From an uncultured Alphaproteobacteria bacterium (GTDB taxonomy: Bacteria; Electryoneota; RPQS01), in contig CAYJKM010000002.1 in NCBI GenBank assembly GCA_964370805.1, forward strand, positions 1,599 to 65,598: 64,000 nucleotides of DNA, read 5' to 3'. Below the pieces are notes generated by a model. It saw only the letters and a list, made by a program, of their open reading frames with translations. It searched no databases and was not told the DNA's origin. Below are positions 32,409 through 61,930 of the stretch, piece by piece. The position numbers were made by a program, and so were the translations under genes. The number at the start of each line of letters is the position of its first letter. Position 1 is the first letter of the stretch.

Positions 32409-32411
32409 ATC

Positions 32412-38790: not shown

Positions 38791-38813
38791 GTGATTGGAC
38801 AAGTAAGCAGATC

Positions 38814-40601: not shown

Positions 40602-40630
40602 GTCAGGAAACGCGTGGAGTAGATTGCCGG

Positions 40631-45300: not shown

Positions 45301-45422
45301 CTCTGCTGGCGATGGCAAAGAAACCGACGGCAGCCGTCGCGGTGTTAAAGAACGCCGAACAAAACGGTTTCTATTCTGAGGGAGTGGCGGAGTGCCGGTC
45401 ATTCCGAAAGCGCATTCAGTGA
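42345..45422 (+). CDS. Large (1025 aa) all-helical hypothetical protein with N-terminal TPR/Sel1-like repeats
   Basis: The start overlaps the TIR gene by 20 nt. No catalytic motif recognised. Last gene of the first island operon. Confidence 0.45.
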   Translation: MRLPPTKDSTRLSERIKWLDARCRTEDKTATDIEALAEAHFRFALCPDTTPAETVRRLRRAIRLDSTNPKFPYHLARVLLSHGKLSVASKWIRRAADLCPTSHRIWTHVCLLQLELNFQYYGDRKYEPDDLRRRASRIFEAVRNGEDAIDRELLTFKPPESRAYREERMHRTDHHAPEESRAAVSAETVAEVPNDAGLKDSAKLLRTTVNRMLDPRRCRWSGLYELEIESHLEAEANQASAHKMLPLLQQVAALATASPRRAASFAILAVQWLVCGYPVRTIRELCPPDPDGASNPAAELLDLVCRIREAKDSDVLAMLAQAARTEMLPPYLIAALHRRYVLGRSLEFKLYSSYRRMQRQLRALSQIPAGTAMPDALKREAGASVKRVEHAIESLNVSSFKTLDSDDIFAVTEALSPEEACRQLKRLTDTAERLKTQSDRLFESAKADSSWTGAQLRTAHDIIPLLTRKAGEGLSELDKIQEGLRALELLECRAEISTQIQQCQRVFREVAMTGRLSKALRRIEKDLNLTPPLGEGDDELERLESRARDITQRIHGRLAAAQEALTIYPQDVQVAPPIRRLRALIEQQAAEAQYRLGHLDVARRLWLEILRTDATHVSILRNLAVSDSCSMDTGRSSASWSRYAEALYYLDVVAGDPVLHAKERVDLHRQIARAYGSTFLNSKRDPRWIDSIDERDVIAGFTNVARIRAYANHRLLEAFNAKLLFRSPVLSLGVGRTESADQFDAANQQLHAFAEACRSMFPPRTRDSFVKLCQDHFDRARDSCRKVDSLTLQADPGYDGEKDRQKEWLGDVLDLRYRLSVIGSVCKTLVGSSALIGLIELAFRLEEIPLGLSRTLLDEVARTFAPQNPDQFVANLNRTRESLVVNLAAYLFREDHDAADRKQRDVQYLRLINRWIRNPALEKYLPFLDDPVQFYSEDISFCVQNGARFASMSDTERKKFEHGMSELQRWCDHWPHITGPARRLGPLLAMAKKPTAAVAVLKNAEQNGFYSEGVAECRSFRKRIQ

Positions 45423-45637: not shown

Positions 45638-45901
45638 ATGTCCAGCCGGTGGGATCTTGGCGGAATCATGCTGAATCCAATGCCGCACGAGGTCCGCGAG
45701 GACGACCAGCTTGTTGACCTGACGTTGATGGAGTTTCGGATCCTGATGGCACTCGTCTTGCGACCGGGTCGGGTCTTCTCCCGCGAACAGACTCAGTTAG
45801 CTGAATCGAGGTCCTCACACCGACTCGCAGAAAAAGCCGATCCGCTGTCCAACGATAACATCCATATTTACAACATTTTTCGTATAATTCTTCGTGACTG
45901 A
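45638..45901 (+). pseudogene. Remnant of an OmpR/PhoB-type response-regulator DNA-binding (winged-helix) domain
   Basis: The 87-aa ORF contains LTLMEFRILMALVLRPGRVFSREQ, matching the trans_reg_C recognition helix region. There is no receiver domain. It sits in an AT-richer ORF-poor seam (45423-46533). Confidence 0.35.
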
Positions 45902-46533
45902 CTGCCCCGAGTGCCCCGAGTCGATTCTCGGCGGCTGACGGCAACCTTTGTTCAAATGCGTAGCGATGAGTAGCAGCCAATGAATTGTGGCCAGCCAATT
46001 AATCCGCGGCACGATAACTCTGACAAAATCCGTCATATTGTACTCGTTTGCGATCCTTCATTGACTTTCCTTTTCAAGTTGGTTAACTTCTAAGGAATGC
46101 TGTAATTCTCGAATTCTCCGTTCTGCAGATACTCTTTGACTTACGAAGTCTTTTCTCCGTGAAACACTACCAAAGAGCAGAACACGCCGCTGCAGCATCC
46201 ATATATTCTTGATTACATTGAAGTTATCAGTAGTTAGTCTGCTCTGAACGTCGCCGTTCGTTCCTTCACTGTCCGCAGAACCTGTCTTCCCTCCATGCAC
46301 TCCGACCCCCTGCCATCTCATTCGTCCGTAGATCTTATCACCCGTCTGCTGATCCGTTGGGTGCGATCTTATCAAGTTCTGCGCGCACCCTTTGGTCCGA
46401 GCAAGTGCAAGTTCCACCCGACGTGTTCCGAGTATATGCGCTTGTCCTTACTGCGTTATGGCTGGTGGAGAGGAACATGGAGGGGCTTGTGCCGCATCGC
46501 GCGTTGCCGGCCGGGGACGGTCAAAGGTGAGGA

Positions 46534-47034
46534 TTGGCCATGAGTTTCTGGCGAGAAACCGAGTTTGTCGGGCGCGTCGTTTCGGTGCCTGAGGTCTACG
46601 AGTTTCAGTCGCGCCCGCAGAGCGGACAAACCGGCAGCGTACGCCGCTTAATGTTTCGTCTGGAAGAACCTTCCGGCCGAGTTTGGGCCGTGCGTTACGA
46701 AGGACCCATTGAGGGCAGCCTGCAGCTTGGTGACTTGATCGCTGTGTTTGGTTACACCCGCGCCCACGGTACGATTCGCGCCACGCGAATCTTTCATGAC
46801 GGCGGCGCTCGACCCGTCCGTATCACCGGCATGAGCCGGATGTGCCTTTTGGCGCTGGTTTGCACGCGCTGCCCGGGACTATTGCTGCCGTTCTACGCAG
46901 TGCGAGATTCACTGCTCTCCCGTAGTCACGTCGGACGATACGTCATCTCCCGCTACTATCAAATCAGTCAAACCCTCTGCCTGCTCTGGTTGGATCTTGC
47001 TATAGACCCGCACACAGATGGCACGCGAGCCTGA
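46534..47034 (+). CDS. Hypothetical protein (166 aa)
   Basis: First ORF after the AT-rich seam and overlaps the next gene's start. Hydrophobic C-terminal segment. No motif recognised. Confidence 0.3.
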   Translation: MAMSFWRETEFVGRVVSVPEVYEFQSRPQSGQTGSVRRLMFRLEEPSGRVWAVRYEGPIEGSLQLGDLIAVFGYTRAHGTIRATRIFHDGGARPVRITGMSRMCLLALVCTRCPGLLLPFYAVRDSLLSRSHVGRYVISRYYQISQTLCLLWLDLAIDPHTDGTRA

Positions 47035-49927
47035 GCGCATTCACAAGCGGTTTGCGGATTTGAAGCCGACTCAGGAGCCTGAGCCGGATTTTGTCGCGGC
47101 GCGTCGCATACTGCTGAGGGGCGATTCACCATCGCCGCCCGATGCCGCATTCCCCGTGCAGCACGACGAAAGAGGATGGTGGCGCATCCGCGAATGTGCG
47201 GTCGCCATGGATCCGGCTAATCCCGAAACGGAAGCCCTTGCGGGGTCGTGGTTGCCGGTGTTGGCGCAACGCGAGCGGCCGGTGACGTTGGCTCTGAGCC
47301 GCCTGTCGTCAGAATACGTACTTGCGGTAAGTGAATCACCGCACGGTGAAGCAACGCGTCTGGCTTTGGAAAGCGCGTATCCCGGCATCGTGCTCGCGCC
47401 GTGGTCACCGCCACGCTTGAGCGGCGGCGCGTGGGGGCGGATAACCGGAATTCCGGCCGCCGATCACAAACCCGCTCAACTGCCGCTCAACCGAATCCTT
47501 GACAGCTCATTATCCGTTGATTTTGTGCTGTGGGTGCAGCTCGTGCCGCTGTCGTCAGGCGAGATGGTGTCGCTGGTCGAGCAGCTTAAGCGCGCGGAAG
47601 CGCTGGCCCGCCGTTACGCGTCCGGAACGCTAACGATCTCGCAGCAACAAGCGAGTCTGCGGAGTGTGAGCGAGCAGCGCGATCAGGCGAACGCCGAAGC
47701 GGCGCTGTTTCTTGATCAGGTCACGCGTGCCTTGAAACGCATGCAAAATGGACTGGCAACGGGTTTGTGGCGTTGGAGCGGAGTGCTCTGGGCGCCGACC
47801 CGTTCACTTTGTGATCAACTGGGTGGTTTATGCCGCGGACTCTGGGGAAGCACAACGTCGGAAGGCGAAACCGTGGAATACGCTCCCATACGGCTTGCAT
47901 CTTCCACCGTGAGCACCGGCAGTATCGTGCAGATCCCTGCAAGCCAATCCGTCGGCGATACCCCGTCCATTCAGTCCATTGTCACGTCGGACGAATTGCG
48001 AAGCGTGAGCCACCTGCCCACTCGCGACGCCCCCGGTTACACAACATATCCGCTGGTACGCTTTGCTACGGCTGTGATGAGTGTACCCGCCGGAGCGGCA
48101 GCTGTAAACGTGGGAACGGTGCTGGACATCTCGCGGGAGACCGGACTCTCCTGGTCACTGACGTTAAGCGCCCTGACGCACCATTGTTTTGTCACCGGCA
48201 CCACCGGCTCGGGCAAAAGCAATACCTGCCGTTATCTACTCGAGCAGCTGCATGCTCATGGCATTCCGTTTTGGGTACTGGAGCCGGCCAAACGCGAGTA
48301 TCGCAGCCTGCTCAAGCACCGCGCACTGCGCGACCGCGTGCGAGTCTACACGCCGGGCAACGAGCGGGTTGCCCCGTTGCGCTTGAATCTGTTTCAGCCT
48401 CCGGCCGGCACGCTGCTGTCTGAGTGGATTGGCGGCTTGAAAACAGTCATTTCGAGCAGTTTTGCTTTGTATGGATCTATGCCGCAATTGCTCGAACGGT
48501 CGCTGTACCAAGCCTATGAGGAGCAGGGGTGGAATACGGCGCGCGACGTGGTCTCGGCGAAAGAGTCGCGTGCGTTTCCGACATTGACGTCCTTCGTTGC
48601 CACTCTGACGACGGTCATAGATGAAGCCGGGTATGGCCGCGAACTTTCGGCCGACTTTCACGGCGCGCTTACCACGCGCATCCGAAGCTTGACATTAGGC
48701 AGTACCGGGGCGATGCTTAACTCAACGGTTCGCTGTGACGTGCGCGAGCTGCTGTGCTATCCCACGATCTTTGAATTCGCATCGGTCACGAACGATCAGG
48801 AGCTGTCGCTGCTGATGGGGGTGTTGCTGTTAAATCTCGCCGCCGTGCGACGCAGCGACGGGTCAAGCGCAAACCTGAAGCACCTGCTCGTATTGGAGGA
48901 AGCGCATCGCCTGTTGCCGGCATTGGGGCCGCTTGCCGAGACCAGCGAAGTGGCGCAAACGCGAAGCCAGGCCGTCAACCTGTTCGTGAATATGCTTGCC
49001 GAGCTGCGTGCATCAGGGCAGGGCTTTGTTCTGGCCGATCAATCGCCGGAGAAAATCGTCAGCGACGCTTTGAAGAACACTGGCACCAAGATCGTCCATC
49101 GTTTGCCGGATCTTCCTGACCGGAACGCAGTCGGCAATACCATGGCGCTTACGGCTATCCAGAAAACCGCGCTGGCGCGACTGAACAAAGGGGCGGCGGT
49201 TGTTTATACGGAAGGCCCCACTCCGGCCGCGCTGGTGCATGTACCGCTGATGCTAACGCTGCCGCCTGTGACGGATGAAGAGATCCGCAAGAGCATGGCT
49301 CCGCATCTGCTCGTGGAGCAGACCGCTTCTGCCGGCCCGGCCTTGTCAGCGAAGATCACAACGCCCGAACGACCGGAACAAAGCGAGACGGGATTGTTTC
49401 GCGGCGTGGAGTTGCTGCGCTGCTTGCTTTCCGGCAAGACCCCTGATGACCTGCAGCCGGATCAAGTCCGTCAGTACGTCGCCGACCGCGCTGCATTTTT
49501 GCGGATCGAAACGGGGGAAGCTGATCGGCTTCAACATCTGCTCTTGGATGCCGCTGATCGAACATTGACAAATGACCAGAACAGGCGGGCCTGGGAGCAG
49601 TTTGCGGCCGACATGTCCCGGCTGATGCTGGCGAAGCGCCACGAGCAAACCCGCTGCGCGGATTGCCCGTCGCATGTTTGCTATGGCGCAGAGACGGAAG
49701 GCATGATGGCTTCCGTAGCCTGGTGGCAAGCCCTGCGTCAATCGCTGGAGAGCGGCGATGCCGCCGCTCTGCGCGAATTCTCGACGGCAGTTGCGCATCA
49801 TCCGGACATGACCATGGATTCATCGACGGAACCTGTGCGCAGCGCACTCGTGCGGTGTCTGGGCATCCGCGTGCTCGCGGAGTTTGACTTTGCCGAACCA
49901 TGGGCCACATTCAACCGGTTAGGATAG
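47018..49927 (+). CDS. HerA/FtsK-superfamily P-loop ATPase (DUF87-like) with long N- and C-terminal extensions
   Basis: 969 aa. Walker A in the HerA-typical context HHCFVTGTTGSGKSNTC, then WVLEPAKREYRSL (HerA DPHGEY-like). Walker B HLLVLEEAHRLLP, and IVHRLPD (Arg-finger-like). Confidence 0.65.
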   Translation: MAREPERIHKRFADLKPTQEPEPDFVAARRILLRGDSPSPPDAAFPVQHDERGWWRIRECAVAMDPANPETEALAGSWLPVLAQRERPVTLALSRLSSEYVLAVSESPHGEATRLALESAYPGIVLAPWSPPRLSGGAWGRITGIPAADHKPAQLPLNRILDSSLSVDFVLWVQLVPLSSGEMVSLVEQLKRAEALARRYASGTLTISQQQASLRSVSEQRDQANAEAALFLDQVTRALKRMQNGLATGLWRWSGVLWAPTRSLCDQLGGLCRGLWGSTTSEGETVEYAPIRLASSTVSTGSIVQIPASQSVGDTPSIQSIVTSDELRSVSHLPTRDAPGYTTYPLVRFATAVMSVPAGAAAVNVGTVLDISRETGLSWSLTLSALTHHCFVTGTTGSGKSNTCRYLLEQLHAHGIPFWVLEPAKREYRSLLKHRALRDRVRVYTPGNERVAPLRLNLFQPPAGTLLSEWIGGLKTVISSSFALYGSMPQLLERSLYQAYEEQGWNTARDVVSAKESRAFPTLTSFVATLTTVIDEAGYGRELSADFHGALTTRIRSLTLGSTGAMLNSTVRCDVRELLCYPTIFEFASVTNDQELSLLMGVLLLNLAAVRRSDGSSANLKHLLVLEEAHRLLPALGPLAETSEVAQTRSQAVNLFVNMLAELRASGQGFVLADQSPEKIVSDALKNTGTKIVHRLPDLPDRNAVGNTMALTAIQKTALARLNKGAAVVYTEGPTPAALVHVPLMLTLPPVTDEEIRKSMAPHLLVEQTASAGPALSAKITTPERPEQSETGLFRGVELLRCLLSGKTPDDLQPDQVRQYVADRAAFLRIETGEADRLQHLLLDAADRTLTNDQNRRAWEQFAADMSRLMLAKRHEQTRCADCPSHVCYGAETEGMMASVAWWQALRQSLESGDAAALREFSTAVAHHPDMTMDSSTEPVRSALVRCLGIRVLAEFDFAEPWATFNRLG

Positions 49928-49931
49928 TGAT

Positions 49932-50774
49932 ATGATTCGAAAAGATCTGCCGGAGTCTCGCGTTGAGCGAGAAGGGCAAGCCGTTGAACGCCGGGAGACC
50001 GAACGACCGGAACACTCGCTGCAAACGGAAAAACGTCATGTGGAGCAGCGCCTGCGCCTCTCTATGGCGGACGCCGTCGCGGATCGCCGCGGCCTTTCCC
50101 CGGCGGAGCGCGGAATGCTGCGCTCCGATGCCCTGCGTACCCGGAACCGTCCGCGCGAAGGAGCCTGGCAGCCGGATCAGCAGAAAGTGGATTGGCATGA
50201 CTTCCGCGATGAAGAACGGGCGATGGGCGAGGTAACCGATTTCCTGCATCAGGAAGATGCTTTTAAGCGGGAGAATTGGGTCAAAGCGTCTCCGCTCGAA
50301 CGCGAACTGGCATTGAACCGCTTGAACCAGACCTGCGAGCGCGCGCACCGCGTGGCAGGGCCGATTGACGTGCGCGGAAAAGATCTTGCTGAAGGCGGTG
50401 GTTTGATCGAGCGCGGCAACTTCGACCCGGAAGAATGGGGGACTGAGGTAAACCGCAAATTGCTCAGGGAAGATGATCCGCGCGCCGCGATTGAAGTCAC
50501 GCTGCACGAGTTTCGCCATTCGATGCACGAAACGGCGTATCAGCGCGGGCTTCGCCCGCCCTACAGCGACGGCACGGACGTGCTTCCGAACTCGGCCAAA
50601 TCGGAAGCCGTGCGCCGTAATCTGGAGACGGGCTATGTGGATCCGGTGCGGGCGGATGCGGATCCCACCGGTCAATCGTGGCAGCATTATGAGGGACAAC
50701 CTTCCGAACAGGACGCCCGCGCTTACGCTCGCCGCGTCATGCAGGAATGGCAATCGCGAGGTTTTGAAGCGTGA
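49932..50774 (+). CDS. HExxH-motif (zincin-like?) hypothetical protein, Arg/Glu-rich
   Basis: 280 aa with LHEFRHSMHE. Starts 5 nt after the HerA-like stop. The antisense 340-aa ORF over the same region is Arg-rich low complexity and was rejected. Confidence 0.4.
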   Translation: MIRKDLPESRVEREGQAVERRETERPEHSLQTEKRHVEQRLRLSMADAVADRRGLSPAERGMLRSDALRTRNRPREGAWQPDQQKVDWHDFRDEERAMGEVTDFLHQEDAFKRENWVKASPLERELALNRLNQTCERAHRVAGPIDVRGKDLAEGGGLIERGNFDPEEWGTEVNRKLLREDDPRAAIEVTLHEFRHSMHETAYQRGLRPPYSDGTDVLPNSAKSEAVRRNLETGYVDPVRADADPTGQSWQHYEGQPSEQDARAYARRVMQEWQSRGFEA

Positions 50775-51121
50775 GCGGCCTTGTGCGCGGTCCCTCGAAT
50801 TGCTTGGGCGCATTCTTCTTCGCGTTCGTGTGGCAAGTGGTCGCCGCCGTGTTTCACGGCTTGACTCGCGCCTATGTGATGGTACTGGAGTTGGCAACGG
50901 GGGTAGTGAACTGGCCGGCTTACGCAACATCATGGCTTAAGGTGCTGGGAGTCATGACCGGGATGGTTGCCTTTCTCGGCATGATTGCGCTCTGTTTGCA
51001 GCTCCTGGCGGCGGGAGTCAGTACACGCATCGAAGTACCGCTGGCGGCGTTCGGTTTGCAATTGGGAATGATTATCGTGCTCTTATTCGTGACGCGATTC
51101 TGCTTTCGGCGAATGATATGA
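50771..51121 (+). CDS. Small integral membrane protein (116 aa)
   Basis: Three predicted TM helices and a GTGA overlap upstream. Confidence 0.4.
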   Translation: MSGLVRGPSNCLGAFFFAFVWQVVAAVFHGLTRAYVMVLELATGVVNWPAYATSWLKVLGVMTGMVAFLGMIALCLQLLAAGVSTRIEVPLAAFGLQLGMIIVLLFVTRFCFRRMI

Positions 51122-51143
51122 AACTATTGTTGAAGGGTCTGGC

Positions 51144-52535
51144 ATGAGTTCAGAAGTCTCATTTGAGGTAGCCGTGCCGGCGGTTGTGGTCGCCGGAGTT
51201 GTTGTCGGCGGGACCTATGCCGCAATTGCGCTCGGCAGCGCCGTCAAGGAGGGATTGGATTGGATTTCTGACGGCATTGCCGACGAAATCAACAAGCAGC
51301 GCGAAGCCGAGTTAGCGCGACGGCGCGAGTTCGAACAGCACCGCGCAGCCTTGGGAGCGGCCGCGACGACCCACCAACAGGAACTCCGCGCGGCAGCCGG
51401 CACTCTTGCCGACGCGCAGAGTCCGGAACAGTCGGAAGCCGAAGCTCAGGCGGCGCGCGCCGAGTTGCAGCTGCTGCTTGTGGCGAACACTCATGACCGC
51501 TCGCGGCTCCAAACCGAATTGCAGGAGATCTTGGCGGCCATGCGCGGCGCAGCGACACTCGATAGTACCCTGCGGCCCCGGCTGCAACGGCTGCGCGACC
51601 AAATTGAGCAGGCCGTTGCCTCCCCGCGCTCCGGCGCCGCTGGATCGTCATCCCCGGACCTTCGGCTCTTTGCGGCGAGACTGAGGGAATTGCTCGAAAC
51701 TAGTCCGCTGGCCAAACTTGCGGAGATTCACGTCGCTTGTACGAGCGCTCTGGCCGCTGTCAAGAGCCTGGAAGAACTGGCGGCCAAGGAACCGCAGCTG
51801 GCTCACCAGCAATTGATTGCTCTGGAACACCGCGTGTCTGATCTGTTCAAGCAGGCCCACAAGCGCGAACGGGAACGCGCGGCAACGCGCGCGCGGAATC
51901 ATGAGGAAGCATTGGTTATCCGGGCGGTGGCATTGGCCGTGCTTCGGATGAGCCCGGTGGAATCGTTGCGGACAGAAGCGCGCACGCTGCTTGAGCAGCT
52001 TGAGGATGACCTGCGACGCGGCGCCGCGAGTCTTGCCCACCGGAGCAAACAAGCCGCGGAACTCGAGCTCCGGCTGCGAAAAGCCATCCGCGAGCGCGAC
52101 GTCATTGCCGCGTTGCTGGAGTCAGCACGAGAGCTGGGATACGAAGCCACGGAGCTTCCGGCGGCCGAAGCTGTTCCCGCCTTTCTGGTACGGCTCAGTC
52201 AGGAAATCGGTGTGCACTACGCAGCAACCAAGGATGGTAAATTCACTGCGGAACTCGTGCACACGGTCAGCGCCGGTGCGAGCTCACACCCCGGGGAATT
52301 ATCGCCGGCGGCGGTGGAACAGCACGAACAGAAAGCTTGCGGTTTCGCCGATCTCGTCATCGCGAAGGCAAGACGCAGCGGTTACCAGATCAAGTCGCAA
52401 ACCCGGCGCAAGGCCAGATCCGGAAAGTTCCAGACGTTCGTCATGCCCGCGAGCGCACGCTTCCCGCATCGCGACGACGAAGAAGACAGCGGCCGGGAAC
52501 AACACGTGATGCGTAATCCGGGAGATGAATCATGA
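51144..52535 (+). CDS. N-terminally membrane-anchored coiled-coil protein, hypothetical
   Basis: 463 aa. N-terminal TM (VAVPAVVVAGVVVGGTYAAIALG), then Ala/Arg/Glu/Leu-rich heptad-like sequence. Confidence 0.4.
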   Translation: MSSEVSFEVAVPAVVVAGVVVGGTYAAIALGSAVKEGLDWISDGIADEINKQREAELARRREFEQHRAALGAAATTHQQELRAAAGTLADAQSPEQSEAEAQAARAELQLLLVANTHDRSRLQTELQEILAAMRGAATLDSTLRPRLQRLRDQIEQAVASPRSGAAGSSSPDLRLFAARLRELLETSPLAKLAEIHVACTSALAAVKSLEELAAKEPQLAHQQLIALEHRVSDLFKQAHKRERERAATRARNHEEALVIRAVALAVLRMSPVESLRTEARTLLEQLEDDLRRGAASLAHRSKQAAELELRLRKAIRERDVIAALLESARELGYEATELPAAEAVPAFLVRLSQEIGVHYAATKDGKFTAELVHTVSAGASSHPGELSPAAVEQHEQKACGFADLVIAKARRSGYQIKSQTRRKARSGKFQTFVMPASARFPHRDDEEDSGREQHVMRNPGDES

Positions 52536-54568
52536 GCACGACAGCGGAATACCGGGAGCCTTTCTGGGTGCGCGACATCATCCGGTCGTCTCCTTACACG
52601 AGCCAATATTACTTGTACGGCAACGTGCATGACCTGCAGCTGCTGCGTACGGAGCAGGACGGCGAAGCCCGCTGGCATGTCGGTTCGCTCGTGGACACGC
52701 TGATAAAAATCTGGAGTCATTGTCTTCCCGGCTACGGTCTGTTGGGAACCTATGATATTGTTGATGGCCTGCAATTCGAGGCGCAGGATCCACAGGACGG
52801 AAGCGGGAGCGGCAGCGCGAAGCCCAAGGACGCAGCAAATGCTTCATCCCAGTTGACGACGGGCCAATCGCTCTATGAACAGCTACTCAAAGGAACGTCC
52901 GGACGGGCCGAGAAGTTGGCCGCTGTGCCGCAGAACGCCGATGAAGTGGACCGAACCCTGATCCAGAGACTGGATGAATTTCGCCGCGTGTTTCGTAATC
53001 AAAGCGTTCCCTGCGCATTCTTCGTGCAGCATGCGTCGCAATGGACGTCGAACCCCAACGGCCCGCGCCCGGTGGAACGGCAGCATTTCGTACGCTTGCT
53101 GAAGATGTCGCGGGAAGCGCAGCAGGTGCGGATCAAAGTCGGCGAGCAGCATGTCACCCGCTACAATACGCTGGCGCTGGTCTGTGAGAAGATCACGGAT
53201 ATCCCGGCCTGGCTCTATCTGGGCAACCCCTATGTCCGCTGCATTGAAGTGGGATTGCCCACGCCGGATGACCGGCGGCAGTTCTTCCGCTTGCATAGCG
53301 CCGGCTGCCATTGGTTGCCCGAAGAGAGCGGGATCCGGTCGTATGCGCTCGAATTGGCGCTGGAAAAAGAACCGTCGTCTCCAGCCGTCGACAAGTACTC
53401 GAACATTCAAGAACGGTTTGTGGATCTGACGGATGGAATGCGACTGAAGGACCTGTTATCTCTGATCTATGTGTCGCGAAGCGATCAGATTCCGATCAGC
53501 AGCGCGGCGACGCTGATCGACCGATTCAAATACGGCGTGCGGCTCAGTCCGTGGGACAGTTTGAGTCCGGAGCGCGTGACGGAAATCGAAGCCAAGCTGC
53601 GCACCCGCGTGAAGGGCCAGGACGCGGCCATTGCGAGCGTGATGGATATTATTGTGCGCGCCAAGGTGGGACTTTCCGGAGCGCAGCACTCGTCAGCCGC
53701 AAAACCGCGCGGCGTACTGTTCTTCGCCGGACCGACCGGCACGGGCAAAACCGAGATGGCCAAAGCCTTGGCGGAAGGTCTATTTGGGACGGAAGATGCC
53801 TGCATTCGCTTTGATATGAGCGAGTATTCCCAAAGTCACAGCGATCAGCGGCTCCTAGGCGCGCCGCCCGGGTACGTCGGCTACGAAGAAGGCGGCCAAT
53901 TGACCAATAAGGTCAAGCAGCACCCGTTTTGCGTGCTCCTGTTCGATGAAATCGAGAAGGCGCATCGTAACATCATGGACAAGTTTCTGCAGATTCTCGA
54001 AGATGGCCGGATGACCGATGGGAAAGGGGAGACGGTCTATTTTTCGGAGGCTGTGATCATCTTTACCTCCAACCGTGGTGCAGCCAACGTGGACCCGCGG
54101 CAGGAGAAAGATCCTTTGGCCGTGCGCTATAAGATCATGCAAGCTTTACGTTCGTACTTCAATGAAGAGCTGGGCCGGCCGGAGTTGCTGAATCGTTTTG
54201 GCAATAACTTTGTGATTTTCGACTTTGTACGGGCCCCGGTGATGGGATTGATTATTGACAAAGTGCTGCACAACATTACCACTCGAGTCCGTGAGAAACA
54301 CCATATCCTGCTGAGCTTCTCGGCTGAGGTCCGGCAATGGATGCTTGATCAGTGCGGCGAGAATGTCGAACAAGGCGGGCGCGGCGTGACGAATTTCGTC
54401 GAAACGGTATTGCTGAACCCGCTGGGCGAGTATCTGTTTCATCATCCGGTTCATGAAGGCTCTCATCTAATAGTCAATGATGTTACCATGGTCCAGCATG
54501 AGAACATGACCCGGTATCAGCTTGACATCTCGCCGGCGCCCGTGGATAATCAGGCCGTGTCCGCATGA
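52532..54568 (+). CDS. Clp/Hsp100 D2-type AAA+ ATPase with novel roughly 330-aa N-terminal domain
   Basis: 678 aa. The C-terminal half matches ClpA/B D2: GVLFFAGPTGTGKTEMAKALAEGLFG, IRFDMSEY, LLGAPPGYVGYEEGGQLT, VLLFDEIEKAH, FLQILEDGRMTDGKG.TV.F...VIIFTSN. There is no D1 or M-domain. Confidence 0.7.
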   Translation: MSTTAEYREPFWVRDIIRSSPYTSQYYLYGNVHDLQLLRTEQDGEARWHVGSLVDTLIKIWSHCLPGYGLLGTYDIVDGLQFEAQDPQDGSGSGSAKPKDAANASSQLTTGQSLYEQLLKGTSGRAEKLAAVPQNADEVDRTLIQRLDEFRRVFRNQSVPCAFFVQHASQWTSNPNGPRPVERQHFVRLLKMSREAQQVRIKVGEQHVTRYNTLALVCEKITDIPAWLYLGNPYVRCIEVGLPTPDDRRQFFRLHSAGCHWLPEESGIRSYALELALEKEPSSPAVDKYSNIQERFVDLTDGMRLKDLLSLIYVSRSDQIPISSAATLIDRFKYGVRLSPWDSLSPERVTEIEAKLRTRVKGQDAAIASVMDIIVRAKVGLSGAQHSSAAKPRGVLFFAGPTGTGKTEMAKALAEGLFGTEDACIRFDMSEYSQSHSDQRLLGAPPGYVGYEEGGQLTNKVKQHPFCVLLFDEIEKAHRNIMDKFLQILEDGRMTDGKGETVYFSEAVIIFTSNRGAANVDPRQEKDPLAVRYKIMQALRSYFNEELGRPELLNRFGNNFVIFDFVRAPVMGLIIDKVLHNITTRVREKHHILLSFSAEVRQWMLDQCGENVEQGGRGVTNFVETVLLNPLGEYLFHHPVHEGSHLIVNDVTMVQHENMTRYQLDISPAPVDNQAVSA

Positions 54569-55230
54569 AGTCGGCACGAATCGCGTGGGGCGGACTGGCG
54601 CGAAACGTCAAAGGGCTGGGCCCCGGCGAACGCACCGTTGTCTGGGTCGCCGGCTGCCGTCGGCGTTGTCCGCACTGCATGACGCCTGAACTCCTGCGTT
54701 TTCAGGAACCGAACATTGATGTGGCTGCAGTTGTCAAGTTGATCAGCGCGTCACCGGATTGGAACGGGCTGTTGAGCATATCCGGAGGCGAGCCCTTTGA
54801 GCAAGCGGCCTCACTGTACGAATTGCTCGCGGGCTTGCAGCACGTCGGACTGTCGGAAACGCTGATCTATAGCGGGTACACGCTTGAGCAATTGCAGCGG
54901 CTGGGTGGAGCACGCACCCGGCTGCTGGAGTTGACTGATATTCTGATTGACGGAGTGTACCGGCACGATCTGCCGCAAACCCTCCCTTGGCGGGGATCGG
55001 ACAATCAGCGCGTGCATCTGTTGTCGCCGCGCGTGCAAGGCTATCGCGCCTTCGCCGATACGCCCAGCGATGCCACGGTTCCGCTCGGCATTCAACCCAT
55101 CCCCGATGTAGGGTTCCGCTTGATCGGTATCCCGCGCCGCGACTTCTTCAAGCGTTGGCGCGATACGCTTACCGCCAACCAACTGACAACCGCAAATCAT
55201 GACAACAAGACATCCATTCATCCGCACTGA
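54565..55230 (+). CDS. NrdG/glycyl-radical-enzyme-activase-like small radical-SAM 4Fe-4S protein (orphan)
   Basis: 221 aa. GLGPGERTVVWVAGCRRRCPHCMTPE (the CxxxCxxC context typical of NrdG/PflA-type activases) plus ISGGEPF. ATGA overlap with the AAA+ gene. No glycyl-radical enzyme is nearby. Confidence 0.55.
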   Translation: MKSARIAWGGLARNVKGLGPGERTVVWVAGCRRRCPHCMTPELLRFQEPNIDVAAVVKLISASPDWNGLLSISGGEPFEQAASLYELLAGLQHVGLSETLIYSGYTLEQLQRLGGARTRLLELTDILIDGVYRHDLPQTLPWRGSDNQRVHLLSPRVQGYRAFADTPSDATVPLGIQPIPDVGFRLIGIPRRDFFKRWRDTLTANQLTTANHDNKTSIHPH

Positions 55231-55248: not shown

Positions 55249-55752
55249 ATGACGGTACGCCTCGCCAAGAAATGCCCGCAATGCGATCAGGAAAACGTGG
55301 TCGACGCCAAAATCTGTTTTAAGTGTGCGGCGCCGCTCCACGGAGTGCGGGCTGTTGCGATTTCAGACGAGCCGCCCGTCTCAGCCAATACGCTGGCTGC
55401 GGCAGAACCGACTCCAGTCGTTGGAGTGACCCGCGTCGTGCAGAGCGACGATGGGTTCCTCGAGTCTTTTTCCGATCCAACCCTGCGTTTCCGGGTTTGG
55501 CACGGAGCGGTGGTCGGACGCGAACCCGCCGACGTGAATCTGACGAAAGCCCGGAATTCGGATACCATTTCACGGCGGCATGCCCGTTTTCTGCGGCGCG
55601 GCCCCGACTGGTTTATCTGTAATGAGCCGCACATCACCAATTTTACCGAGGTGAACGGCGAACGTGTTGAGGAAGCTGACGAACGTGGTTTGCAGGATGG
55701 AGACGAAGTCTCGCTGGGATTGTCGCGGTTTGTTTTTCGCGCAGGAGCTTAA
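55249..55752 (+). CDS. Zn-ribbon + FHA-domain protein
   Basis: 167 aa. CPQC...CFKC zinc ribbon, then an FHA signature (VVGREPADVNL...ISRRHARF...WFICNE.HITNFTEVNGERV). Confidence 0.7.
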   Translation: MTVRLAKKCPQCDQENVVDAKICFKCAAPLHGVRAVAISDEPPVSANTLAAAEPTPVVGVTRVVQSDDGFLESFSDPTLRFRVWHGAVVGREPADVNLTKARNSDTISRRHARFLRRGPDWFICNEPHITNFTEVNGERVEEADERGLQDGDEVSLGLSRFVFRAGA

Positions 55753-55754: not shown

Positions 55755-56615
55755 GTGGGCATGCACATTCTCGCCGCGGCGCAAAGCAATTCCGGCAAGG
55801 TACGTGACCGGAACGAGGATTGTTTTCTTCTGGGTCGGTACGTGGAGCGAGCCGCCGCGATGAGCTTTGGCTTGTCCACGCAGGGCGACGTCTTTCAACG
55901 CTACGGCTTCATCGCCGCGGTCGCCGATGGCGTCGGCGGAGAACAAGGCGGGGCCGAAGCCAGCCGCATCGCGCTGGATACGCTGAGTAGTCTCTATTAC
56001 AGCGAAACCCGCGACCAAGTGACGGAAGAGGAAAGCGCGTCACTGCTGGAGCGGCTGCTTGCGCAAACGCAGGATTTATTGGTCAAAACACTGGCACGCG
56101 ACAACAAACTTGAGCGCGCGGCTACAACCATTGCCGGGATTGCGATGCTGCCCTGCGGAGCATGCGTCGTTTATCATGCCGGAGACACACGCGTACTGCG
56201 ATTGGCGGCCGGTTTTATGGATGCGTTGACGAGAGACCACTCGGTGGCCGCAGCCGTGATTGAGAGCGGCCAACTGACGGAAGAGCAGGCGCTGGGACGC
56301 CCGGACGCCCGGCATCTGACGAGCGCGATGGGTTCCGGCGGACACTTTAACCCGGAGATTAATGCCCGCTCCCGCTTTGTGCCGGGGGACCGACTGCTGC
56401 TCTGCACGGATGGCATCTACACGTATTCCGGACCGTTGTCCAAAGAGACGCTGAAAGGCATCCTGCAGCGGCCGGTTTCGCCAACGGAAGTGGTTGCAGA
56501 GTTGATCGCGGCTGCGCATGACGTCAGCCGGGATAATTTGACGGCACTGGTGATTGATTTTGCCGAGAGTGAACGCGGCAACGCGTTACTCGTCAAGGGC
56601 ACCATAACTAAGTGA
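55755..56615 (+). CDS. PP2C-family Ser/Thr phosphatase
   Basis: 286 aa. GKVRDRNED, FIAAVADGVGGEQGG, and LLLCTDGI motifs. Confidence 0.75.
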   Translation: MGMHILAAAQSNSGKVRDRNEDCFLLGRYVERAAAMSFGLSTQGDVFQRYGFIAAVADGVGGEQGGAEASRIALDTLSSLYYSETRDQVTEEESASLLERLLAQTQDLLVKTLARDNKLERAATTIAGIAMLPCGACVVYHAGDTRVLRLAAGFMDALTRDHSVAAAVIESGQLTEEQALGRPDARHLTSAMGSGGHFNPEINARSRFVPGDRLLLCTDGIYTYSGPLSKETLKGILQRPVSPTEVVAELIAAAHDVSRDNLTALVIDFAESERGNALLVKGTITK

Positions 56616-59126: not shown

Positions 59127-60026
59127 ATGCAGCCCTGGTTCTGGTTAGAATGTTATGTGCAAGGGTTTCGCCTGGCGCTGCGGACGCCGACCTTTCCGCT
59201 GATTGCTGTGATCTCCGTCGTTACGGGCAAGTACGGCGAGGAGCGAATTCTGGGGGCGCTGGCGCAACAACAACTGTCCTTTGCCGGGATGAGCTGGGTG
59301 GAGATTGTGCGCTGGATCCAGCACCCGCCGCCGGCCGTCGTCGCGCAGCTGGCGCCGCTGCTCGTTCTGGGGCTGGGTTTGATGCTCGTGGCCGGCGGGA
59401 ATAATCTGGGTCTCATGGGAATCATCCGCGATTATCTGGTACGGCGGGTGTATCGTTTGCGCGACGTGGCAAGCTGGGCCGTGCGAGTGCTCGTGCCGGT
59501 GTTGCTTTACCGCGTGTGGCTCGCAGTGTTTCTGACGGTCGCCGCCCTGCTTTGCTTGGCGCTGTTTGCGGGTGTCTATTTCGCCAGCGGTCGCCATGCA
59601 TGGACGGTTTGGCTGGCCGCCACCCTCCCCGCTGCGGCGGTTTTGGTTGCTTATCGTATCTACGTTTCCATGGGATCAAAAGCGGTGATCGTCCTCGGCA
59701 TCCATCGGCCGCAAATGCTGCTCCGAATTTGCTCGCGGCTGACATCCGCCTATCCTGCGCAAGTCATTCCCTTCTACGCAAGTATGTGGCTGCTGTTTGC
59801 AATCGTGGCCGCGGCCGGATACGTGTCCGTGCGCTATTGGCATCTTCCGCTCTGGGTGATCTGGTCGGTCGTGATCACCGCGGGAGCGCTTGGCACTGCT
59901 GCGCTGAAATCGGCCGGTCTGCTTTTCTTCATGAAGTTGTGCGAGGATTCCCCCCATCTCGTCGCGGACGTGCCGCCGGCATCGGCTCGTCCGGCGTCCG
60001 CATCTCCACTCGACCCGGTCTCCTGA
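59127..60026 (+). CDS. Polytopic membrane protein, hypothetical
   Basis: 299 aa with 6 or more predicted TM helices. No motif recognised. Confidence 0.4.
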   Translation: MQPWFWLECYVQGFRLALRTPTFPLIAVISVVTGKYGEERILGALAQQQLSFAGMSWVEIVRWIQHPPPAVVAQLAPLLVLGLGLMLVAGGNNLGLMGIIRDYLVRRVYRLRDVASWAVRVLVPVLLYRVWLAVFLTVAALLCLALFAGVYFASGRHAWTVWLAATLPAAAVLVAYRIYVSMGSKAVIVLGIHRPQMLLRICSRLTSAYPAQVIPFYASMWLLFAIVAAAGYVSVRYWHLPLWVIWSVVITAGALGTAALKSAGLLFFMKLCEDSPHLVADVPPASARPASASPLDPVS

Positions 60027-60049: not shown

Positions 60050-61930
60050 ATGGAAGATTGTCTCGGCTCGGGATTTGGCGTAGTGATTGTCATTGGCTTA
60101 GTCATTGCCGCAATCTACTGGGCGGTTAAGCTGCTGCTCATGTTGCTGGCCGGCATCTGGGCGGTCATCATTGCCATTTCGGTTAACTTGGTGTCGGGTG
60201 TAGACTGGGTGCTGTGTCTCGCCAGCGGCATGCATCCGGCTGTCGCCTGGGCACTTGTTGGCGCTGCTGTCGCTCTGATCTGGGGTATTCGCGAGGCCTT
60301 TCGCATCTATCATTTCAAGCAATGGCTGCCGGTGCTTGCGTTCGTACCGCTGGTCGTTGTCGTTCTGGTTCGCTTCGCCGTCGGCGTGACGGTGCCGGCT
60401 GATCGCGCGGGCGTGCTGCTCGAAAAGGGTGAGTACGAACAGCTGATCGCGCAATTCGGTTCGGACTCAAGCGCGGCCCGATCCGTTCGCACGGCGCGAG
60501 ACACGCTGGCCGCGCGCCTGTTCGCCGCCGGAGAATATCAGAAAATTGTCGAAGCGTGGGCAGGCACCAGTGTGGCTCCGGCGGCACGAGACTGTGTCGC
60601 GACGCGGCTGCTGCGTGCGGGAAACCTGACGGAAGCGGCGGCCAAGTTTGCCGACACTCCGTCCGGGGCCACGGCCAGAAACCGGATCGCGGATGATCAT
60701 CTCAAGCGCGGCAACGTTGACCTGGTCCTGCGCGAGTATATGCAAACCCCTGCCGGCGCCAAGGCCGTACAGAGTGTTCGGCGTTTGTTTCGACCCGGCA
60801 GCGTATGGGAAGGCCGCATCGCTTACGATCCTCAGTTCAAGCGGCCCGGAGAGCAGTTACATATCAAGATCACCTCGGCTAAGGGACTCAGTTTTACTGG
60901 GGTGAGTTCTTACGGCAATAGCGGCAATTACACGTGCAGCGTAAACTTCAGCGGCAGTTTCAAAGACAGCAACCACTTCATTTTTGTCAATAACCAGCGC
61001 GTAACGGGCAACTGCATGATTCCTTGCACATACGATGGATCGGCCTTGGCGTCTTCCCTTAACGGCCGATGGAGCTGTCCGTCGTTTTCAGGTACGTTCG
61101 AACTGATGCTGCGCAAAGGACAAAAAGCCGAAGCTGAGGGAGCCCTGATATCCTCGGACTCGACGGTCTCAGGCCAGCAGGCAAGCGTGTTGGACAGCGC
61201 CGCGACCGGGGAGCAGGAAAGTGGTGCAACTCAGGAAGCCGCGGCGGGCAACAACGTATTGGTGCTTGGCGGCAGCGGATCTTATGTCTCCATCCCACAC
61301 ATCTCTCCCTACGATTTGCGTTCGTCCATGACGATTGAGGCTTGGGTGTACCTGAAGAGTTATGGGGACTGGCGAGGAGTGGTCACAAAAGGCACGCAAT
61401 GGGGTGTGTATTCGATGCGGCTGGCAAAACACCGCATCAACTTCTATCTTAATGACGGTCGGTCTGATCGCTGTTCCGCCTCGTCAAATCGCGAGATTCC
61501 TCTCAAGCAGTGGCACCATTGGGCGGTGACATACGATCAAGGAGCTATGAAGGTTTACGTAGACGGGGAATTGGACGGCAGTGTCACCTGCACAAAACCA
61601 ATCCACAATAACAGCGAAGCGCTGATCCTGGGAGCAGACTTGCCCGAAGGCGACGAGTATCTGCACGGCGAAATTGACGACGTTTGCTTGTGGTCCGTCG
61701 TTCGCTCGGCAGAGGAAATCAAGCAGGACATGACCGGGATGCCGACGGGATCGAACAAGAATGTGGTAGGATTATGGCGCTTCGACGATGACACCGACTC
61801 AGGGGTGGCCGTAGATGGCTCGCGCTTCAAAAATATTGGCAGGGGGCATCGGGCTCAGATCACAGCCCCGCAAGCGACTCGACCGGTCAATCTCCGCGCT
61901 GCCAATCCAATTACATCCCCGACCAAATAG
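60050..61930 (+). CDS. Membrane protein with helical (TPR-like) region and C-terminal LamG-like (concanavalin-A-like lectin) jellyroll domain
   Basis: 626 aa. Three to four N-terminal TM helices. The C-terminal segment SMTIEAWVYLKS...WHHWAVTYDQGAMKVYVDGELDGS...GEIDDVCLWS matches the Laminin_G_3 pattern. Confidence 0.55.
   Translation: MEDCLGSGFGVVIVIGLVIAAIYWAVKLLLMLLAGIWAVIIAISVNLVSGVDWVLCLASGMHPAVAWALVGAAVALIWGIREAFRIYHFKQWLPVLAFVPLVVVVLVRFAVGVTVPADRAGVLLEKGEYEQLIAQFGSDSSAARSVRTARDTLAARLFAAGEYQKIVEAWAGTSVAPAARDCVATRLLRAGNLTEAAAKFADTPSGATARNRIADDHLKRGNVDLVLREYMQTPAGAKAVQSVRRLFRPGSVWEGRIAYDPQFKRPGEQLHIKITSAKGLSFTGVSSYGNSGNYTCSVNFSGSFKDSNHFIFVNNQRVTGNCMIPCTYDGSALASSLNGRWSCPSFSGTFELMLRKGQKAEAEGALISSDSTVSGQQASVLDSAATGEQESGATQEAAAGNNVLVLGGSGSYVSIPHISPYDLRSSMTIEAWVYLKSYGDWRGVVTKGTQWGVYSMRLAKHRINFYLNDGRSDRCSASSNREIPLKQWHHWAVTYDQGAMKVYVDGELDGSVTCTKPIHNNSEALILGADLPEGDEYLHGEIDDVCLWSVVRSAEEIKQDMTGMPTGSNKNVVGLWRFDDDTDSGVAVDGSRFKNIGRGHRAQITAPQATRPVNLRAANPITSPTK

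Follow-up and report, generated by a model that had tools for sequence, protein, structure and literature searches.

What a HerA/FtsK-type ATPase, a HExxH protein, a Clp-type ATPase and a radical S-adenosylmethionine (SAM) enzyme might do together was the question raised by a group of genes near the end of a 64,000-nucleotide stretch of contig CAYJKM010000002.1 from an uncultured bacterium, hereafter called the window. These genes were found to belong to an uninterrupted plus-strand run of 13 genes, which extends over about 46.3–61.9 kb of the window, from a YidD-like gene starting at 46295 to the gene of a LamG protein ending at 61930 (Table 1). Most of the encoded products are membrane-linked. 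The explanation that we favour, and to which we give roughly an even chance, is a phospho-regulated, membrane-tethered conflict system of the anti-phage or anti-invader type, composed of three linked sub-modules.

Judged by the domains of its products, sub-module A would comprise YidD, a small OB/transmembrane (TM) protein, a hexameric ATPase of the HerA/VirB4/DptH type, a lethal-factor (LF)-like zinc peptidase and a 3-TM protein. Sub-module B, consisting of a coiled-coil membrane-anchored adaptor, a two-tier AAA+ ATPase and a radical-SAM enzyme of the NrdG/PflA type, appears to be a three-gene cassette that moves between conflict operons. Sub-module C would supply an FHA reader, a PP2C eraser and a TM-anchored Ser/Thr kinase as the writer, together with polytopic and LamG membrane proteins. 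The conflict-system reading was preferred because of the patchy distribution of these genes, their exchangeable partners, carriage of the cassette on plasmids beside nucleases and toxin–antitoxin genes, a WYL regulator near one relative, and the neighbourhood of SLATT, TIR, Hsp70 and TPR proteins.

Conservation of the gene set

The genes present, how they are linked and the intact state of their catalytic motifs were observed directly. All open reading frames (ORFs) named in a first-pass annotation of the window were present on the plus strand at their coordinates, with a coding-type GC profile over the codon positions (GC1 above GC2, high GC3), and they agree with the genes that had independently been predicted on two ENA contigs from this organism. 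From overlaps and short spacers, the first-pass annotation had proposed one coupled operon at 46534–55230. The coupling is borne out by the coordinates of the genes; the unit is, however, larger, and the proposed borders missed the genes for YidD, the FHA protein, PP2C, the kinase and two membrane proteins. A HExxH gene paired with the ATPase gene and a membrane coiled-coil gene had likewise been described, and both are present: the former lies directly after the ATPase gene and encodes the motif HEFRH at residue 192, the latter the 463-aa protein CC463 with an N-terminal TM helix and a charged helical region.

The first-pass annotation had further suggested a search for co-occurrence in other genomes, and the unit was kept in two distant loci and partly in four others. 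Genes for the HerA-type ATPase, the Clp-like ATPase, the radical-SAM enzyme, FHA, PP2C and the kinase were found together in the window, in a metagenomic Logan contig (locus L008) and in Desulforhabdus sp. TSK (locus L049), in three different gene orders. In L008, where the genes are arranged as two divergent operons, identities to the window proteins were 38% for the ATPase, 41% for the Clp-like protein over its full length including the N-domain, 42% for the radical-SAM enzyme, 30% for FHA, 31% for PP2C and 27.5% over 741 aa for the kinase. In L049, the Clp-like, radical-SAM, FHA, PP2C and kinase genes are followed by those of a 6-TM protein and a TM/BON protein, and then by the ATPase and HExxH genes. 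FHA orthologues (30% identical) adjoin the radical-SAM gene in both loci, and PP2C orthologues occur in both as well.

Partial sets were observed in other genomes. The ATPase, a Clp-like fusion, the radical-SAM enzyme and PP2C are encoded in a metagenome-assembled genome of Bosea (L039). A radical-SAM gene lies near the ATPase gene in L043, L062 and L021; in the first two of these, the order of ATPase, HExxH and multi-TM genes is also kept. In L026, genes for a vWA protein, PP2C, a kinase and a YidD-like ORF (4909–5115) precede those of the ATPase and of the closest HExxH homologue. The same families were thus retained in three gene orders, and a functional link was therefore favoured over mere adjacency; by sequence comparison, the arrangement is not a product of chance. 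The gene set was described neither in the literature searched nor in PADLOC v2 or NCBIfam.

Some of these loci contain additional genes. On the opposite strand of L049 (19682–21949 and 14717–16192, minus strand), an AAA–AAA–trypsin fusion, WD40 proteins, an Hsp70-like protein and a protein with an Lcl_C domain are encoded, and a WD40 protein gene stands directly before the radical-SAM gene in L043.

Ring ATPases, radical-SAM cassette and phospho-switch

The 969-aa protein is a member of the HerA/FtsK superfamily, as had been proposed. The DUF87/HerA central domain was matched with E 2.4e-10 (41.3 bits, the cut-off being 23.2), and the two Walker motifs are present, GTTGSGKS (A) at 394 and LLVLEEAH (B) at 624. 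The protein has its own N-terminal domain (about residues 1–320) and a helical, Cys-containing C-terminal domain (about 770–969), and no TM segment was detected by hydropathy. Structurally, the core was nearest to DptH/DndH-C and the C-terminal domain (CTD) of VirB4, with HerA next. The label "HerA" given in the first-pass annotation is apt for the superfamily, but the core resembles HerA proper no more closely than it does DptH/DndH-C or VirB4-CTD.

Scores against family models were 30.6 bits for NF042943 HerA_antiphage (800 needed), 16.9 bits for NF040819 helicase_HerA (970 needed) and 17 bits for VirB4 (590 needed), and the score for CedD was also far below its cut-off; no VirB4 N-terminal domain was found in the protein. 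Because the HerA, anti-phage HerA, CedD and VirB4 models all scored far below their cut-offs, the ATPase is placed, by its sequence features, within the HerA/VirB4/DptH assemblage and outside every named family. No type IV secretion system (T4SS), relaxase or conjugation genes were detected in L008, in L049 or among the approximately 45 window genes, and reassignment of the ATPase to conjugation or T4SS (VirB4/TraC), which had been named as the outcome that would overturn the first interpretation, was not warranted.

A scan of one genome per species returned more than 588 relatives of the ATPase; locus comparisons were made on the best 80, and neighbours of the clade were clustered over 84 loci. 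Relatives with 30–39% identity to the window protein (the best 35–39%) were found, and the clade of proteins of about 1000 aa is spread over Actinomycetota, Chloroflexota, Bacillota, Pseudomonadota, Planctomycetota, Spirochaetota and archaea. The proposal that the partner is not NurA, Sir2 or DUF4297 was upheld, as no such domain occurs in the window and no such partner was found by clustering in the 84 related loci.

The partners that were found vary with lineage. FHA proteins are encoded immediately upstream of the ATPase in 22 of the 84 loci, and an uncharacterised family of about 220 aa immediately downstream in 20. Kinases were present in 15 loci, dynamin-like GTPases in 14, often with a hexapeptide transferase and a large radical-SAM enzyme, and Hsp70-like proteins in five (L019, L025, L034, L049 and L089). 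The HExxH gene immediately follows the ATPase gene in six (L026, L043, L049, L062, L067 and L079). In Acinetobacter piscicola, a WYL regulator is encoded upstream. By analogy, such lineage-dependent exchange of partners is typical of conflict hubs.

A second type of operon was observed on the ATPase clade in L006, L057, L069, L086 and L104 (for example L104, 2711–11886). It encodes the ATPase, proteins of about 210 aa and about 160 aa, a dynamin-like GTPase, a hexapeptide-repeat transferase, a protein of about 248 aa and a radical-SAM enzyme of 430–460 aa. This large radical-SAM enzyme is unrelated to the NrdG type, and no description of the operon was found in the literature searched.

The second ring ATPase is the 678-aa Clp-like protein, in which AAA_2 (E 1e-49) and ClpB_D2-small (E 3.7e-7) were matched. 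Residues 335–650 correspond to the D2 module of Clp/Hsp100 proteins (PDB match to ClpB D2, E 3e-59) and carry a GYVGY threading pore loop (GYVG at 447), Walker A and B motifs and the D2-small lid. The protein has a single Walker A, at 400. No ClpP-docking IGF/IGL loop was found: the stretch from sensor-1 (512) to the lid lacks an [ILVM]G[FLM] tripeptide. Neither a Clp_N match nor an M-domain was present. The ClpB model TIGR03346 reached 263.7 of the 1232 bits required and aligned to D2 only, and the ClpV model reached 228 of 885 bits.

The N-domain (residues 1 to about 345) is conserved in its own right. An exhaustive search with residues 1–355 among 1.8 billion sequences yielded 314 representatives at 50% clustering, nearly all of them 600–690 aa long and of identical architecture, and no PADLOC or NCBIfam model covers this domain. 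Its conserved motifs are GN[IV]xD, YDxVDGL, LICDKLNDLPxWLYLNNP, PDxxERRRFF and YKYGxxESxWD, the first of which stands at the position equivalent to the D1 P-loop, which has been lost. The profile of the N-domain matched only classical AAA ATPases in the PDB (VAT with E 6e-4, p97, paraplegin and spastin), and the match spans the junction between the alpha/beta subdomain and the lid. In an AlphaFold2 model (pLDDT 88.8, pTM 0.82), about 690 columns were aligned with D1 plus D2 of ClpC, ClpA and ClpB. The 678-aa protein is predicted to be a two-tier ring ATPase with a dead, P-loop-less D1 and an active Clp-type D2. Of the earlier designation "ClpB-D2-like", the D2 part was right; the protein is two-tier, with a dead D1 that the designation does not cover.

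The 221-aa radical-SAM enzyme, whose presence in the operon together with a Clp-D2-type AAA+ protein had been correctly recognised, matched Fer4_12 with E 6.7e-26. It contains GPGER...GCRRRCPHC at 31, GGEP at 74 and GSDNQ at 144, in agreement with the family motifs GPGxR...GCxxxCxGC, GGEP and W/RGSxNQ. Among solved structures, the family profile matched PFL-activase best (E 7.5e-17), followed by QueE (1e-4) and viperin (3e-3), and the enzyme is about 38% identical to a plasmid-borne NrdG over residues 19–150. It scored below the equivalog cut-offs of TIGR02491 NrdG (80 against 126.1 bits) and TIGR02493 (42 against 232 bits), and it has a conserved C-terminal extension of its own of about 60 residues. 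Because of the motifs, the best match to PFL-activase, the 38% identity to NrdG, and a sub-cut-off NrdG score combined with an extension of its own, the enzyme is assigned by sequence to the NrdG/PflA, or glycyl-radical-activase, type. Its neighbourhood encodes neither NrdD nor PFL nor another glycyl-radical protein.

The first-pass annotation had regarded this activase as an orphan, which was not upheld in the genomic sense: it is one half of a conserved pair of AAA+ and radical-SAM genes, a pair also seen where HerA is missing. In 12 of the 13 loci of the N-domain family its two members adjoin, usually with an overlap, and in the thirteenth they lie within 10 kb of each other. The pair was found in the window, L008, L039, L049 and an IMG/VR contig (L091), and on plasmids of Rhizobium, Aristaeella, Moellerella, Polaromonas, Acinetobacter, Photobacterium and Leisingera. 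A charged, coiled-coil-like protein of 370–530 aa with a C-terminal alpha/beta segment is usually encoded just before the AAA+ gene; L008, L091 and the plasmid operons are examples, and the protein has an additional TM anchor in L008 and in the window.

On proteobacterial plasmids, the cassette closes a five-gene operon opened by genes for an MkoA-like helicase (PADLOC, E 9e-96) and a PIN protein. This order (MkoA-like, PIN, coiled-coil, Clp-like, radical-SAM) was seen on plasmids of Acinetobacter, Polaromonas, Moellerella, Photobacterium and Leisingera (L095–L098 and L103), where the operons are flanked by ArdA, integrase, transposase and toxin–antitoxin genes. On the Aristaeella plasmid, the cassette lies among genes for a DUF4011 helicase, two kinases, FHA and PP2C, and in Rhizobium it precedes a gene for a 2086-aa kinase-helicase. 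On the Calothrix plasmid pCAL6303.02 (L101), in an Hsp70–TPR–radical-SAM–AAA operon, the radical-SAM gene alone of the cassette comes after those of Hsp70 and a TPR protein; this setting echoes the SLATT, RelA/SpoT-RyR, GrpE, Hsp70, TPR and TIR genes directly upstream in the window. No match to the cassette was found in the phage collection, and none in complete E. coli genomes. An example of the five-gene operon is found at 2335–12054 of L097 (Acinetobacter plasmid pNDM1_010055), where a further pair, consisting of a small AAA ATPase and a "radical SAM protein", adjoins the operon (12325–14307).

The HExxH protein carries, besides HEFRH, the segment SEQDARAYAR at 258–267, in which E259 was recognised by inspection as a candidate third ligand. 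HEFRHS and QPxEQDARA[YF] are shared with the counterpart in L026, and HEFRH and the 258–267 segment are conserved in L026 and P0032. Two database relatives were found, in addition to the L026 protein (28% identity, E 3e-5). The protein scored below cut-off with DUF3920 (18.6 against 27.3 bits, E 0.002), as did the L049 counterpart with Pfam ATLF (E 6.8e-4, 19.8 against 27.4 bits), and the profile gave no PDB match. From these features, the protein is provisionally regarded as a likely anthrax-LF-like gluzincin.

Of the small membrane proteins, p166 has a weak DUF5666 match at residues 58–86 and a TM helix at 105–123, and shows a weak similarity, 33% identity over 120 aa, to an ORF upstream of the HerA-type gene in L021. 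TM-containing proteins also occupy the position of p166 in L008 (276 aa, with a Zn-ribbon, a TM helix and "GDxVxVFG") and in L043. A multi-TM protein is encoded after the HExxH gene in L043 (85 aa, 3 TM) and L062 (300 aa, 3 TM), as it is in the window by the gene for the 116-aa protein TM116.

The kinase of sub-module C has the motifs VLK, HRDIKPDN, DFD and PPE (Pkinase, 81.7 against a cut-off of 31.7 bits) and TM helices at 744–762 and 797–815. The phosphatase has the metal-binding motifs DGxGG, DG and DN (PP2C_2, 43.9 against 24 bits), and the FHA domain shows the pattern GR...SRxH...NG (38.9 against 20.7 bits). Because the motifs of all three are intact, the phospho-switch should be active. 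A vWA protein of the TerY type was not found in the window; vWA proteins were seen in L008 and L026. The kinase matched the kinase region of MkoA in PADLOC (E 1.5e-21) and gave weak matches to class III/IV lanthionine synthetases, confined to the kinase domain (E 9e-7).

The two membrane proteins that follow the kinase were compared with L049. The 299-aa 5-TM protein is collinear with the 6-TM protein after the L049 kinase, at a weak 23% identity over 221 aa, and the position of the LamG protein is taken in L049 by a TM protein with a BON domain. The LamG protein is probably extracytoplasmic, and is tentatively regarded as a member of the system and a candidate sensor.

Proposed mechanism, related systems and competing explanations

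For the favoured conflict system, the following course is envisaged, in which the substrates, the order of events and the outcome are those that we infer. A membrane or infection cue would be sensed by the TM kinase, perhaps jointly with the membrane proteins that carry LamG or BON domains. Phosphorylation of threonine, read by the FHA protein, would license assembly, and PP2C would reset the switch. The HerA-type ring ATPase would act at the membrane on DNA or protein, while the Clp-like ring, anchored through the coiled-coil adaptor, would thread a target polypeptide and pass it to the radical-SAM enzyme instead of to the ClpP protease. Abstraction of a backbone hydrogen (of the Gly C-alpha type) could then lead to irreversible cleavage, epimerisation or cross-linking of the polypeptide. 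The zincin would add a second proteolytic activity. As a result, an invader protein would be neutralised or the growth of the infected cell arrested. The earlier suggestion of an unfoldase-type machine was a reasonable reading of these genes.

The boldest part of this scheme concerns the cassette itself. The coiled-coil protein, the Clp-D2 AAA+ with dead D1 and the NrdG-type radical-SAM enzyme might constitute a protein-targeting effector class, "thread-and-radicalise", in which the radical-SAM enzyme replaces ClpP beneath the unfoldase ring and which, being mobile, is plugged into different sensors: in the window the HerA/VirB4-type ATPase with its kinase switch, in other loci Mokosh-like helicases or Hsp70/TPR. 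We regard this as a doubtful proposal.

Several observations weigh against a conflict system. The functions of all families discussed here were deduced from sequence, and the HExxH protein is a near-orphan whose peptidase fold rests on sub-threshold matches. In a neighbour-joining tree of the ATPase cores, the window protein stood on a long isolated branch, and the loci bearing a radical-SAM or HExxH gene formed no clade. Homology was not supported between p166 and the 276-aa protein of L008, which is an analogue by position, nor was it statistically supported between TM116 and its positional counterparts; for the coiled-coil proteins of different loci, no significant homology was detected by BLAST, pairwise alignment or hidden Markov models. 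The glycyl-radical motif RVxG[YFW] was absent from the module proteins and from the related loci, and the substrate of the radical-SAM enzyme could be a small molecule. PADLOC v2 gave generic matches only (HerA/mad8 for the ATPase and PDC-M37B/DolB for the AAA core); the radical-SAM, HExxH and coiled-coil proteins had no match there. No tRNA and no compositional break were found at the borders of the module, and no integrase is encoded in the window. Finally, the chaperone-rich content is also compatible with a role in proteostasis.

Comparison with described systems yielded partial likenesses. HerA-centred anti-phage systems, namely SIR2-HerA/Nezha and DUF4297-HerA, were reportedly described by Gao and colleagues in 2020 and in later structures. 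Compared with these, the window ATPase is about 400 aa longer, has N- and C-terminal domains of its own and has a core nearer to DptH-C/VirB4-CTD; the operon, moreover, holds a zincin and an AAA+/radical-SAM pair as effector candidates, a kinase/PP2C/FHA switch and membrane anchors. With DptH/DndH of phosphorothioate-dependent restriction (DndFGH) and with VirB4-CTD, a core of about 340 residues alone aligns, at 15–17% identity. The fold of the DptH C-domain is matched, but DndF/DndG, Dnd modification genes and the large N-terminal DptH domains were not found in the window.

Mokosh reportedly consists of the helicase MkoA and the nuclease MkoB, as described by Millman and colleagues in 2022, and we know of no AAA+ or radical-SAM genes in the published system. 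The Clp-like/radical-SAM cassette is appended to MkoA-like helicase and MkoB-like PIN genes in five plasmid lineages, whereas the window has neither a Mokosh helicase nor a Mokosh nuclease. The radical-SAM enzyme resembles NrdG and PflA in its N-terminus (GxGxR...GCxxxCxxC), GGEP and (R/W)GSxNQ, but is partnered by an AAA+ unfoldase and has the extra C-terminal segment of about 60 residues. The Clp-like protein shares the D2 module with Clp/Hsp100 proteins (ClpB, ClpV, human CLPB/Skd3) and lacks a ClpP loop, as do ClpB and ClpV; it differs from ClpB/Hsp100 in the lost D1 P-loop, in having neither Clp_N nor M-domain, and in the coupling of its gene to a radical-SAM gene. It also resembles DolB of Dodola (PADLOC, E 2.5e-17).

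The TerY-P triad, said by Gao and colleagues in 2020 to consist of vWA, PP2C and a Ser/Thr kinase, and the type VI secretion system (T6SS) pathway of PpkA, PppA and Fha1 with ClpV resemble the window in that a Hanks kinase, PP2C, FHA and a Clp-family ATPase share one operon, and in L008 and L026 the triad is found together with vWA genes. The window, in contrast, has no vWA gene and no T6SS structural genes, and its triad is embedded in a larger ATPase operon.

The closest published theme is that of Kaur, Burroughs, Iyer and Aravind 2020 (eLife 9:e52696). FtsH ternary systems were described there as an inactive N-terminal AAA and an active AAA with a "distinctive radical SAM" effector, for which modification of a peptide effector was proposed, and GAP1-N2 GTPase-centric systems as membrane-proximal, with Hsp70/GrpE/TPR, kinase plus PP2C plus vWA, and SLATT among their variable partners. 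These partners all occur in or next to the window or in the related loci, and the radical-SAM enzymes are likened by their description. Compared with FtsH ternary systems, the window has no MoxR and no vWA, its active AAA+ is of the Clp/Hsp100 D2 type rather than the FtsH type, and its centre is of the HerA/VirB4 type; compared with GAP1-N2 systems, it has neither GAP1 nor a GTPase.

Some candidates were set aside. Ophion (radical-SAM, PHP and PRTase), MADS and Dnd systems were compared and differ from the system of the window, and the PADLOC matches to mad8 and mad6 reflect generic P-loop and kinase similarity.

Among the other explanations, the one that survived best was a machine for quality control of the envelope or membrane proteins and for stress, in which the switch would sense damage through LamG or BON domains, and the ATPase, unfoldase, protease and YidD would extract, unfold, and degrade or repair. 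It accommodates YidD, the Clp-type unfoldase, the upstream Hsp70 and GrpE genes and the recurrence of Hsp70-like genes by the ATPase clade, as well as the many components with TM helices, the extracytoplasmic LamG or BON domains, and the competence, by motif, of kinase, PP2C and FHA. It does not accommodate the patchy distribution (two relatives of the HExxH protein, and best ATPase relatives 35–39% identical), the plasmid-borne AAA+/radical-SAM cassette beside PIN nucleases and Mokosh-like helicases, an activase-type radical-SAM enzyme that housekeeping would not need, or ATPase partners that vary by lineage. This explanation was judged unlikely.

A secretion or translocation apparatus following the logic of T4SS, the type VII secretion system or T6SS, with the ATPase driving transport, the AAA+ protein as an EccA/ClpV-like recycler, and FHA, PP2C and kinase acting as in T6SS, was considered quite unlikely. 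T6SS regulation brings together FHA, kinase, PP2C and a Clp-family ATPase, EssC carries FHA domains, the fold of the ATPase is VirB4-like, and flanking TM proteins are conserved by position. These TM partners are, however, tiny and non-homologous between loci, the ATPase has no TM segment, and the VirB4 and ClpV models scored far below cut-off. No VirB, Tra, Ess, Ecc or Tss core component was detected in the window, and the AAA+/radical-SAM cassette also stands beside purely cytoplasmic helicase/nuclease pairs.

It is highly improbable that unrelated systems (ATPase with HExxH protein, AAA+ with radical-SAM enzyme, and kinase/PP2C/FHA) are merely neighbours within a defence or variable island. 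Each sub-module does occur alone, the AAA+/radical-SAM pair without HerA, HerA without either of the others, and the kinase/PP2C/vWA triad as a stand-alone theme (TerY-P; Kaur et al. 2020, eLife 9:e52696), and the absence of a clade of radical-SAM-bearing loci from the ATPase tree fits such juxtaposition. Against it stand the three gene orders in three distant genomes (window, L008 and L049) in which the combination was retained, and the tight spacing across the sub-module borders (22 nt between the TM116 and CC463 genes, 18 nt between the radical-SAM and FHA genes). In addition, the N-domain family is rare, with its 314 representatives, yet lies within 10 kb of the ATPase clade in four independent loci.

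A cluster for RiPP-like (ribosomally synthesised and post-translationally modified peptide) maturation, in which the radical-SAM enzyme would modify a precursor, the HExxH protein cut its leader, the kinase modify Ser/Thr and the membrane proteins serve export or immunity, has hardly any chance of being correct: radical-SAM enzyme, metallopeptidase, kinase and membrane proteins do share an operon, the kinase domain weakly matches lanthionine synthetase models and a peptide effector was proposed by Kaur et al. 2020, but the enzyme is a minimal NrdG/PflA type with neither SPASM nor RRE domain, no conserved short ORF or precursor and no lanthionine cyclase or lyase domains were seen, and two large ring ATPases are foreign to known RiPP logic.

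A HerA-hub, kinase-regulated conflict system would be known in kind; provided that "thread-and-radicalise" holds, the effector arm would represent a new kind. Should the conflict-system reading be true, a large, unstudied clade of HerA/VirB4/DptH-like proteins of about 1000 aa (more than 588 matches) would be the hub of conflict systems with at least four partner sets: FHA; dynamin with a large radical-SAM enzyme; the 220-aa family; and zincin with an NrdG-like radical-SAM enzyme. To our knowledge, glycyl-radical-type activases are known only as dedicated partners of metabolic enzymes. They would gain an effector role alongside an AAA+ unfoldase, which would mean a new logic of immunity and a new client enzyme for AAA+ proteins. 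The cassette is present on plasmids of culturable Acinetobacter, Moellerella, Photobacterium, Polaromonas and Rhizobium, which makes the hypothesis testable. Even if the defence reading failed, a kinase-controlled membrane machine with two ring ATPases, a radical-SAM enzyme and a zincin would be a piece of unexplained biology.

Operon coordinates, junctions and neighbouring genes

The genes of the operon are listed in Table 1.

Table 1. Genes of the 13-gene operon, with positions in the window.
Gene product	Coordinates	Strand	Evidence
Small YidD-like protein, of the membrane-protein insertion efficiency factor family; the operon probably starts with its gene	46295..46543	+	Pfam YidD, E 3.4e-19, 68.8 bits (cut-off 27)
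p166, OB-like beta segment and one C-terminal hydrophobic helix; likely start ATG 46540	46534..47034	+	ORF
969-aa ring ATPase, HerA/VirB4/DptH assemblage	47018..49927	+	DUF87/HerA central domain
280-aa Arg/Glu-rich HExxH protein, putative anthrax-lethal-factor-like gluzincin	49932..50774	+	HEFRH at 192
116-aa protein (TM116), 3 predicted TM helices	50771..51121	+	Hydropathy; coding-type GC profile
463-aa protein (CC463), N-terminal TM anchor, charged coiled-coil-like region, C-terminal alpha/beta segment	51144..52535	+	TM helix 5–23
678-aa two-tier Clp-like AAA+ (predicted)	52532..54568	+	AAA_2, ClpB_D2-small
221-aa radical-SAM enzyme, NrdG/PflA type	54565..55230	+	Fer4_12
167-aa zinc-ribbon and FHA protein, phosphothreonine reader	55249..55752	+	FHA, E 1.2e-9; zinc-ribbon matches
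286-aa PP2C Ser/Thr phosphatase	55755..56615	+	PP2C_2, E 2.7e-11; Stp1-type model, E 1.7e-35
828-aa Hanks-type Ser/Thr kinase, long C-terminal region, two C-terminal TM helices	56632..59118	+	Pkinase, E 7.2e-23
299-aa polytopic membrane protein, about 5 TM	59127..60026	+	Hydropathy
626-aa TM and LamG/concanavalin-like protein	60050..61930	+	Laminin_G_3, E 7.4e-33; 3 TM helices

The stop of the YidD-like gene overlaps the p166 ATG at 46540 as ATGA, and p166 overlaps the ATPase gene by 17 nt. Overlaps of 4 nt were found at three junctions: HExxH/TM116, CC463/Clp-like and Clp-like/radical-SAM. The ATPase and HExxH genes are separated by 4 nt, and downstream, from the FHA gene through the LamG gene, a spacing of 2–23 nt is maintained. 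A scan for promoters and terminators gave sites no more numerous than those in shuffled sequences.

All credible genes of the window from 258 to 61930 (about 62 kb) lie on the plus strand, many with 4-nt overlaps. Long antisense ORFs, such as that at 49911–50933 (340 aa), are GC-driven artefacts. The YidD-like ORF at 46295–46543 is missing from the public ENA gene predictions; as a stand-alone copy it is unusual, because YidD is usually linked to rnpA/yidC.

The 1.1-kb gap upstream of the module contains an 87-aa ORF (45638–45901, plus strand) with a partial match to the winged helix of the OmpR type (Trans_reg_C), which is probably the remnant of a response regulator. Farther upstream (27234–45422, plus strand), a SLATT protein, RelA/SpoT with RyR, a GrpE-like protein, Hsp70, three TPR proteins and a TIR protein are encoded. 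This module and the 13-gene operon may be functionally connected, because Hsp70-like genes recur near the ATPase clade and an Hsp70–TPR–radical-SAM–AAA operon occurs in Calothrix.

The first part of the window (258–26280, plus strand) encodes proteins resembling benzoyl-CoA reductase and 2-hydroxyglutaryl-CoA dehydratase (HGD-D, BcrAD), a CoA ligase and beta-oxidation-like enzymes, as well as a molybdenum hydroxylase and proteins of molybdenum cofactor biosynthesis. The source organism is probably an anaerobic degrader of aromatic compounds, and the nearest relative of the module was found in a Desulforhabdus.

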